64,000 bases of DNA, from the sequence record MF327004, one strand, 5' to 3'. Each line of letters starts with the position of its first letter. The stretch's first letter is position 1. Positions 20,148-21,178 of the stretch are shown here, in pieces. A program made the translations under genes and the position numbers. Below the pieces are notes generated by a model. The model was not told the DNA's origin, ran no database searches, and saw only the letters and a list, made by a program, of their open reading frames with translations. This DNA comes from Shigella phage Sf17.

Positions 20148-20588
20148 TTAGAAAGGTTTTCTACGTTGCTTGTTAATGTTAGCTTTCATGGCAGCTAAAT
20201 GGTTTTGCTGTTCAATCAGTCGTGAACGTTCTTGATGACTAAGTACCATAGTGTTCACATTCTCAATCGCTTGAGTGGCTTGTTTTAAAGCACGACCAAT
20301 CTTACTAGACATTTTACGTTTTGCAATAGTTGCTTGATGTTTAGGTTCCACCACACGATAACCAACACCCATTGAAGTGACCAGATAAATCTTCTCTTCT
20401 TTAAGAAGCTTCTCAATAAACTTCTCAAGTCGATTTAGGCGTGTAAGTGCGTAAGCTTTCATTTCATCTTCGTACTTAACAATGTCACCTTGATAAGTCG
20501 GCTTCACAATACCTAAGAAGGTGTCCATCTCAGAGTGTGATACAGTATCACCGTAACTGAACTTTGCTGCTAATGCTTTTGTATTCAT
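20148..20588 (-). CDS. hypothetical protein
   Basis: 146-aa ORF, ATG at 20586-20588, basic C-terminus (NKQRRKPF); no recognisable motif. Confidence 0.45.
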   Translation of the reverse strand: MNTKALAAKFSYGDTVSHSEMDTFLGIVKPTYQGDIVKYEDEMKAYALTRLNRLEKFIEKLLKEEKIYLVTSMGVGYRVVEPKHQATIAKRKMSSKIGRALKQATQAIENVNTMVLSHQERSRLIEQQNHLAAMKANINKQRRKPF

Positions 20589-20590
20589 AA

Positions 20591-21178
20591 TTAAACATTA
20601 CCTTCTGAAATAACTTCTACAGAAAAACGACCAAAGCGTGGACGCCAATCACCTACACCACAAAGGTTGCCAGCATTTTCCAGAACCATCAAGAGTTCTT
20701 CTTTGGTAATTTGTTCTTCATCGAACATCAAACCAAACTCTACAGACCAGTCACGGAAGATTGGACGGTAGCTCATAACTCGTGCTGTGCCAATCTTAAC
20801 AGACTTCGCATAGATAAAGTCTTGGTTCTTAGCTAGTTCTTGTGGGTTTGCTGGACAGTTCTTAATAGTCATTGGGAAGACTACATCTGTCAGCATAATG
20901 GCTCGGTCAATTACCTTACCAAGTTTGTTGAGTTTTGCACCAGACTTGATACAAGCCTCAATCATCTCACCGTTCATAACAAAACCTAGTTGCTCGTCGT
21001 AGTAACAAGAGGTTACCAGTTGACTCTCTGCTAAGAGAGCGTAGTCTTCGTCAGTCTTTTTACGTTTACTAGACAGAGACTTGTGATACTTTGTCAGAGG
21101 ATTTAATGGGTCTGACAGAGTATCAGCATGGCTCAGGAAAGGACGAGTGCCAGTGATTTTGATATTTAACAGTTTCAT
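20591..21178 (-). CDS. hypothetical protein
   Basis: ORF-track start 21193 is GTG; ATG at 21176-21178 with GGAG 9 nt upstream is more likely; about 195 aa; no recognisable motif. Confidence 0.45.

Follow-up and report, generated by a model that had tools for sequence, protein, structure and literature searches.

A probable type II VIPR locus in Shigella phage Sf17 and the predicted satellite targets of its guides

Introduction

VIPR (Viral Interference Programmable Repeat) systems, described in 2026, are phage-encoded, CRISPR-like, RNA-guided DNA binders (10.64898/2026.04.26.720920, 10.64898/2026.04.26.720927). As the two preprints present it, a VIPR locus has three kinds of parts: vipr, which encodes a minimal RAMP protein that is kin to Cas5, Cas6, and Cas7; an accessory gene (vap); and genes for guide RNAs (vrRNAs), each with 9–16 YNNGG repeats and a structured tail (10.64898/2026.04.26.720920, 10.64898/2026.04.26.720927). 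In phage SUSP1, the vrRNAs are reported to be expressed as RNAs of about 100 nt, to co-purify with Vipr, and to repress transcription of their targets (10.64898/2026.04.26.720920, 10.64898/2026.04.26.720927). One Vipr protomer sits on each GGY, and the protomers together make a helical filament with the 3' pseudoknot as its cap. The NN dinucleotides form base pairs with double-stranded DNA, with every third target base skipped; the resulting R-loop triplex blocks transcription without cutting (10.64898/2026.04.26.720920, 10.64898/2026.04.26.720927). Co-expression of the accessory gene vap1 raises protection in the SUSP1 system (10.64898/2026.04.26.720920).

How does VIPR compare to better-known RNA-guided systems? 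Like the roadblock formed by dCas9 (CRISPRi), VIPR is an RNA-guided, DNA-bound complex that represses transcription (10.64898/2026.04.26.720920). Unlike dCas9, VIPR assembles from multiple subunits into a filament, has no PAM, acts on either strand, and forms an R-loop triplex with gapped pairing (10.64898/2026.04.26.720920, 10.64898/2026.04.26.720927). As with Cas7 or Csm3 of class 1 CRISPR-Cas systems, a protein with the RAMP fold polymerizes on the guide RNA, and its thumbs periodically break the pairing of guide and target (10.64898/2026.04.26.720920, 10.64898/2026.04.26.720927). But VIPR lacks the repeat-spacer array, cas1 and cas2, and the nuclease of class 1 systems. The reading rule differs as well: VIPR reads two of every five RNA bases against two of every three DNA bases, while class 1 CRISPR-Cas reads five of six.

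In 2013, Seed et al. reportedly found that the lytic Vibrio phage ICP1 carries a CRISPR-Cas system with guides against PLE, a parasitic chromosomal satellite. VIPR is similar in that a phage-borne, RNA-guided system is aimed at a chromosomal satellite. However, the system of ICP1 is a type I-F CRISPR-Cas that degrades the DNA of PLE and acquires spacers, while VIPR binds and silences without cutting. We know of no adaptation machinery for VIPR.

Here, we analyze a two-gene cassette of Shigella phage Sf17 within a 64-kb window (the whole stretch of DNA that was analyzed). A first-pass annotation, made from the sequence without database searches, had left the function of both genes blank. We find that they encode Vipr and Vap1 of the published VIPR system and that the region from 19879 to 21595 (minus strand) is very probably a complete type II VIPR locus of the SUSP1 clade.

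Results and discussion

Layout of the locus

Sf17 is a Felix O1-like myovirus (Ounavirinae), of the Sf18-like Mooglevirus type. The 3.5 kb that surround the cassette are 99.7% identical to Shigella phage Sf18 (Mooglevirus), and across 19791–21759 the two phages differ by 1 nt. Annotations in near-identical phages confirm the neighbors that had been proposed: on one side, a gene for a protein of 126 amino acids whose N-terminus is signal-peptide-like (19410–19790), and on the other side, a DNA ligase gene (21759–22859). We also noticed a minus-strand ORF (21601–21750) for a strongly hydrophobic protein of 49 amino acids, in the stretch that separates the VIPR promoter from the ligase gene.

Reading along the minus strand, the order of elements is: promoter, leader hairpin, vrRNA A, vrRNA B, vipr, vap1, terminator, vrRNA C, leader hairpin, and vrRNA D. 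Judged by sequence, the locus has every feature that defines a type II VIPR of the SUSP1 clade. It shares with the VIPR locus of SUSP1 its gene neighbors (ligase and ORF87-like), its leaders, its three types of tails, the GGY-NN code, and the satellite family that is targeted. In contrast, none of the NN strings is shared, which means that the target sites are different as well. The carriers differ too: SUSP1 is a Suspvirus, and Sf17 is an Sf18-like Mooglevirus. We also checked if the locus might belong to CRISPR-Cas, and it showed no repeat-spacer architecture, no Cas family from Pfam or NCBIfam, and no match in Rfam.

The cassette is a separately terminated unit, as the first-pass annotation had proposed, with its own promoter, arrays, and a leader hairpin upstream. 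The promoter (TTGACA-16-TATACT; 21568–21595, minus strand) is sigma-70-like, agrees with the consensus at 11 of 12 positions, and precedes the first vrRNA. The intrinsic terminator (20121–20136, minus strand) lies 11 nt past the stop codon of vap1 and is a GC-rich hairpin with a UUCG tetraloop, followed by a T-run (AGCCTCTTCGGAGGCT CCTTTTT). vrRNAs C and D are located beyond it.

Each array is headed by one of two conserved leaders. The first is a 39-nt hairpin (CATCACTTAAGAGTCTTTTAAGAGGGTTTTTAAGTGATG), at 21499–21537 and again at 19966–20004 (both on the minus strand), and is a candidate processing signal or promoter. The second (AAAGGTCTTTAAAAGGGTCTTTT; 21360–21385 and 20091–20116, minus strand) is an 11-nt tandem of the form AAAGGTCTTT/AAAGGGTCTTTT. 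A motif that is related to the leaders is also found 5' of vipr (21210–21250).

The proteins Vipr and Vap1

vipr (20591–21178, minus strand) encodes a RAMP-like protein of 195 amino acids, with an RRM core, a G-loop, and a thumb. In a search of solved structures, it was identical to chain D of PDB 36pp ("SUSP1 Vipr protein") at 193 of 195 positions (E = 1e-129), and by analogy to SUSP1, it would polymerize on vrRNA. All of the residues to which the structure paper assigns a function (H17, K33, R39, E71, M72, K82, G87, K88, R138, C173, D177, W178, and R179) are conserved. The structure preprint places T175 in the Y3 pocket, but residue 175 is valine in Sf17 and also in the GenBank record of SUSP1, so T175 is probably an error of numbering or typing in the preprint. 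The start codon is the ATG at 21178, and a GGAG lies 10 nt before it. We also considered a GTG at 21193, but this adds only an upstream extension, and the solved SUSP1 protein begins with MKLLNIK.

vap1 (20148–20588, minus strand) begins 3 nt past the stop codon of vipr and encodes a Vipr-accessory protein of 146 amino acids, of which 142 (97%) are identical in the gene downstream of vipr in SUSP1. Its C-terminus (...NKQRRKPF) is basic; this and the coordinates of both ORFs had been described correctly in every detail. The first-pass annotation also saw no recognizable motif in either protein. This holds for Pfam, NCBIfam, and PADLOC, which gave no matches, and a search of PHROGs gave unnamed families only; but the match to 36pp does name the 195-aa protein.

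The AlphaFold2 model of Vap1 (pLDDT 95.9, using an alignment of remote homologues) has a winged-helix-like unit at the N-terminus, comprising helices at residues 18–25 and 36–65 and a beta-hairpin at 69–79, followed by a long helical hairpin (residues 82–143). The beta-hairpin bears a nearly invariant motif, G76-Y77...P82..Q85. From the model, the winged helix appears to be similar to those of ScpB and linker histones, and the helical hairpin resembles a coiled coil. A comparison of the model to folds in the PDB found no significant match.

A word-indexed search for homologues of Vap1 found near-identical proteins only. An exhaustive, profile-free search found 255 remote homologues of 145–200 amino acids; none of these is annotated, has a Pfam domain, or has a solved relative by sequence. 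Two of the remote homologues (36% and 33% identity) are encoded directly 3' of Vipr homologues (43% and 42% identity), and GG-pentamer arrays lie downstream of the one such pair whose downstream flank was read. Furthermore, among viral models, the best structural match to Vap1 comes from Gordonia phage Trine (gene 40), where it follows the Vipr homologue (gene 41). Because the synteny of vipr and vap1 is kept in remote homologues, we consider Vap1 to be a partner of Vipr. It could even be the actual effector of VIPR, or a clamp.

Four arrays of putative guides

Exactly four period-5 GG arrays occur in the window, and each of them is on the minus strand. Two are upstream of vipr-vap1 (21495–21421, with 15 units, and 21353–21284, with about 13) and two are downstream (20084–20035, with 10 units, and 19962–19908, with 11), so the cassette is indeed flanked on both sides by pentamer arrays, as had been noted. 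No GG-pentamer arrays arose in 100 shuffles of the window. Forty-one of the 44 units fit the canonical form GG[C/T]NN, with 15 distinct values of NN; the degenerate units include TGTCC, AGTGA, and AGTCA. (Elsewhere in the window, at 57034–57155, there is a 45-nt tandem repeat with 2.9 copies and a TRF score of 131, which is unrelated to the VIPR locus.)

Together with their tails, these arrays form four putative vrRNAs, all on the minus strand. vrRNA A (21388–21500) has 15–16 GGY-NN units and a hairpin/pseudoknot tail; vrRNA B (21255–21353) has about 13 units, some of them degenerate; vrRNA C (20006–20084) has 10 units; and vrRNA D (19879–19967) has 11–12 units. B, C, and D also end in pseudoknot tails, and the tail of D is a GGAAG/CCTT variant. 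A 44-aa ORF at 21370–21504 (minus strand; MMLGKVRFGWVWYGLVWLGWVW...) is not a gene; it is a translation of the array of vrRNA A.

We compared the arrays of Sf17 to those of SUSP1 and KhF3. The GGY positions, the two kinds of leaders (the second being the AAAGGTCTTT-type tandem), and the three kinds of tails are shared by all three phages, while the NN dinucleotides are completely different. Sf17 and KhF3 have two arrays upstream and two downstream of the genes, as against one upstream and three downstream in SUSP1 (as the paper reports).

The tails show covariation. In an ungapped alignment of ten tails from phages and satellites, the fold is a 5-bp hairpin plus a 4-bp pseudoknot that joins the last repeat unit to the hairpin loop. 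Pairing holds in 98.9% of cells, compared to 30–42% for slid controls, and 8 of the 9 pairs have compensatory (double-sided) changes. For instance, the pseudoknot occurs as GUAG/CUAC, GUGG/CCAC, or AAGG/CCUU. Because the last unit pairs into the pseudoknot, its NN never matches the target. A search of Rfam found no match in the locus and no family for the tail.

Overall, the sequences suggest that the pentamer arrays are vrRNA guide genes and not merely recombination boundaries.

Predicted targets in a chromosomal satellite

Guides of the SUSP1 clade are reported to target a satellite with a phage-like baseplate hub (10.64898/2026.04.26.720920). To find this satellite, we used as a probe the hub gene of Sf17 itself (5734–6540), which is annotated as "phage baseplate protein" and matches a Dit-like tail protein family in Pfam. 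Among 5426 complete genomes of E. coli, 473 contain a satellite hub ("phage baseplate protein") that matches this gene at 72–77% nucleotide identity. The satellite is about 12 kb, lies in the chromosomes of E. coli or Citrobacter (next to tonB, among other sites), and has serine recombinase genes at its ends. For example, the satellite of E. coli E15 (locus L007) lies between yciI and tonB and encodes a small serine recombinase, a Dam methylase, an HTH_36 protein, small ORFs, an HNH endonuclease, a tape-measure protein, the Dit-like hub, and a large serine recombinase. Since its tape-measure and baseplate-hub genes are related to those of Sf17, the satellite probably parasitizes the phage. Further satellite loci came from species-representative genomes (3), IMG/VR (4), and metagenomes (51), and the alleles that match guides B, C, and D were found only by the scan of metagenomes.

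We scanned all positions on both strands of 741 kb of preselected, satellite-bearing loci with each guide, allowing 0, 1, 2, or 3 skipped bases. With one base skipped, and including a later-added 5' unit, the best scores were 26/30 for guide A (which is only 87%), 22/24 for guide B, 17/18 for guide C, and 22/22, a perfect match, for guide D. When the order of the NN values was shuffled, the maximum scores were 22, 19, 16, and 18, so guide C exceeds its shuffles by a single base. With 0, 2, or 3 bases skipped, the best scores were 20/28, 17/22, 15/18, and 16/20, computed for the core guides, in which the additional 5' unit is absent. [quoted passage not shown] As these guides also yield hits, we consider the procedure to be validated.

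Guide A is predicted to target a AAAGCGTCCTGAGTAATTCGGATGTGTTTACGACCTTTAGA-type site on the antisense strand of an ORF of 92–99 amino acids, where the skipped base is the wobble base. The predicted target of guide B, TAAAGAAGCCCATGCCTGAAACAGTACGATGATTA, lies in the untranslated leader of the operon for the HTH protein, about 100 nt downstream of a putative promoter (TTGCAA-17-TATAGT); the HTH_36 gene follows after about 90 nt more. The other two predicted targets are within the gene for the large serine recombinase. For guide C (TGTTTGCTATCTGTAAATGGCTAAAC, codons SMFAICKWLN), the skipped base is at codon position 1 and not at the wobble position; for guide D (TTCCGTGTTTCTCAGAAATGGGAGCAACGTGC, codons RVSQKWEQRA), it is the wobble position. 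We considered whether the site of guide C might be the start codon of the recombinase, but the methionine there is internal.

Different alleles of the satellite are matched by different pairs of guides. At the site of guide D, two loci (L007 16831–16859 and L008 11845–11873) have AGC as a serine codon where L039 (11907–11938) has TCT. This switch is the sole break in pairing in L008, while L007 has two single-base mismatches besides (three mismatched units in all). From these sequences, the synonymous change from TCT to AGC may be an escape from targeting by VIPR.

Other searches for targets were negative. One E. coli locus (L006) had no match within 3 mismatches; scans of IMG/VR for the exact patterns of guides A and C found nothing; and in BLAST searches with guide-corrected targets, no E. 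coli allele came nearer than L007 to guide A or guide D. There is no self-target in the 64-kb window, where the best self-matches are at the background level, so we rejected a role in self-targeting or superinfection exclusion.

By analogy to SUSP1, whose system is 99% identical, Vipr of Sf17 would form a filament on the GGY repeats of the vrRNAs. The NN dinucleotides would pair with double-stranded DNA of the satellite, with 1 base skipped of every 3, and block its transcription, and Vap1 would enhance silencing, as in SUSP1. We infer that the infecting phage would thereby silence the satellite of about 12 kb.

Could the cassette instead act against the bacterial host, such as by silencing host immunity genes? 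The first-pass annotation had seen a typical context for host takeover or anti-defense. It was right to expect genetic conflict, and not replication or structure, but the decoded guides match the satellite and not host targets. An accessory, variably present module in the early-gene region would suit a host-directed role, and a satellite can be counted as a host-borne defense when it interferes with its helper, so that "counter-defense" is partly a matter of wording. However, the four guides match satellite genes and not core chromosomal genes (in the scanned chromosomal loci of 30–40 kb, the outliers fall within the satellite), and neither protein is similar to known defense systems in PADLOC. 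We consider a host-directed role to be very unlikely.

Distribution of vipr, and orphan guides

Returning to VIPR as the identity of the locus, vipr is present at 90% amino acid identity or above in about 116 records from Ounavirinae, and also in about 15 distant phages of Pseudomonas, Mycobacterium, Gordonia, and Listonella. Felix O1 (NC_005282) lacks both vipr and vap1 and has just 282 bp between ORF87 and the ligase gene (L068 3633–3914). These 282 bp keep the promoter, a leader hairpin, one partly degenerate GGY-NN array, and an intact D-type pseudoknot tail. The orphan guide of Felix O1 does not match the satellite (its best score, 14/18, is at the background level). This short type of junction is common to about 110 records. 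Judging from the sequences, if the DNA from one copy of the 39-nt leader hairpin to the other (21537–21499 and 20004–19966 in Sf17) were deleted, exactly the arrangement of Felix O1 would result.

These results bear on the idea that the direct repeats mark an exchangeable module. Among Ounavirinae, where a check of presence and absence had been suggested, the cassette does vary (about 116 records with it and about 110 without). But the repeats themselves are better explained as functional guide genes.

The relatives that have only an orphan array, along with the degenerate units of Sf17 (TGTCC, AGTGA, and AGTCA), might suggest that the locus is a decaying relic, with intact genes but guides that no longer function. 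This seems highly improbable: the ORFs are intact and 97–99% identical to the experimentally active proteins of SUSP1; guide D matches at 22/22 and guide B at 22/24; and the promoter, the terminator, and the pseudoknots are intact.

Finally, the arrays are almost certainly not DNA-level iterons (a centromere or partition site of a ParR/StbB-like protein, or a replication origin) with the genes encoding the binding proteins. In favor of iterons, the genes have arrays on both sides, much as a promoter is flanked by parC iterons; the record of KhF3 labels one repeat "direct repeat sequence4 possible binding site of StbAB" (L001 1993–2003); and that of wV8 labels the arrays "DR_4" (L002 3219–3276 and 4612–4669). 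Against iterons, the 195-aa protein is Vipr, which has a solved structure and binds RNA; neither protein matches a Par or Stb family in Pfam or NCBIfam; the published arrays are transcribed and co-purify with Vipr (10.64898/2026.04.26.720920); the 3' tails show the covariation of an RNA pseudoknot; foreign DNA contains matches to the decoded NN strings; and NN is hypervariable among close relatives while GGY is fixed, which suits guides. These StbAB and DR_4 annotations are now superseded.

Taking the arrays as guide genes, we also found them in satellites. At least 10 satellites bear a unit of sigma-70 promoter, vrRNA, and terminator, with a pseudoknot tail of the phage type (L006 19998–20090; also in L024, L029, L032, L033, L041, L055, L063, L064, and L065). 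Searching these satellites with tblastn found neither vipr nor vap1. Their orphan guides match other satellites (21/24 and 23/26) and not the phage window. Satellite vrRNAs are mentioned in the preprint, and in the parts of it that we drew on, we did not meet phages that lack vipr (10.64898/2026.04.26.720920). Perhaps guide genes circulate independently of Vipr, and orphan vrRNAs are loaded in trans by a helper or by a co-infecting phage, but we view this as a tentative idea that is more probably wrong than right. If true, these vrRNAs would be free-riding guides that redirect the effector of another element.

Implications

The function of this cassette is already published (in the 2026 preprints on VIPR and in PDB 36pp), and the copy in Sf17 gives no new principle. 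What this analysis adds is local: a map of the guides of Sf17 and their predicted targets; the array layout of 2 + 2; the polymorphism in the presence of vipr and vap1; and the orphan vrRNAs in satellites and in phages without vipr.

VIPR is a new mode of DNA recognition by RNA, and ancestry to CRISPR effectors has been proposed. The locus of Sf17 appears to be a natural, intact copy of it in a Felix O1-like phage of the Shigella/Citrobacter type. Its four predicted guide-target pairs, including a perfect one in the integrase gene of the satellite, are material for tests of an arms race between phage and satellite. And the identification of VIPR makes two "hypothetical proteins" and four "direct repeats" interpretable in over 100 phage records in GenBank.
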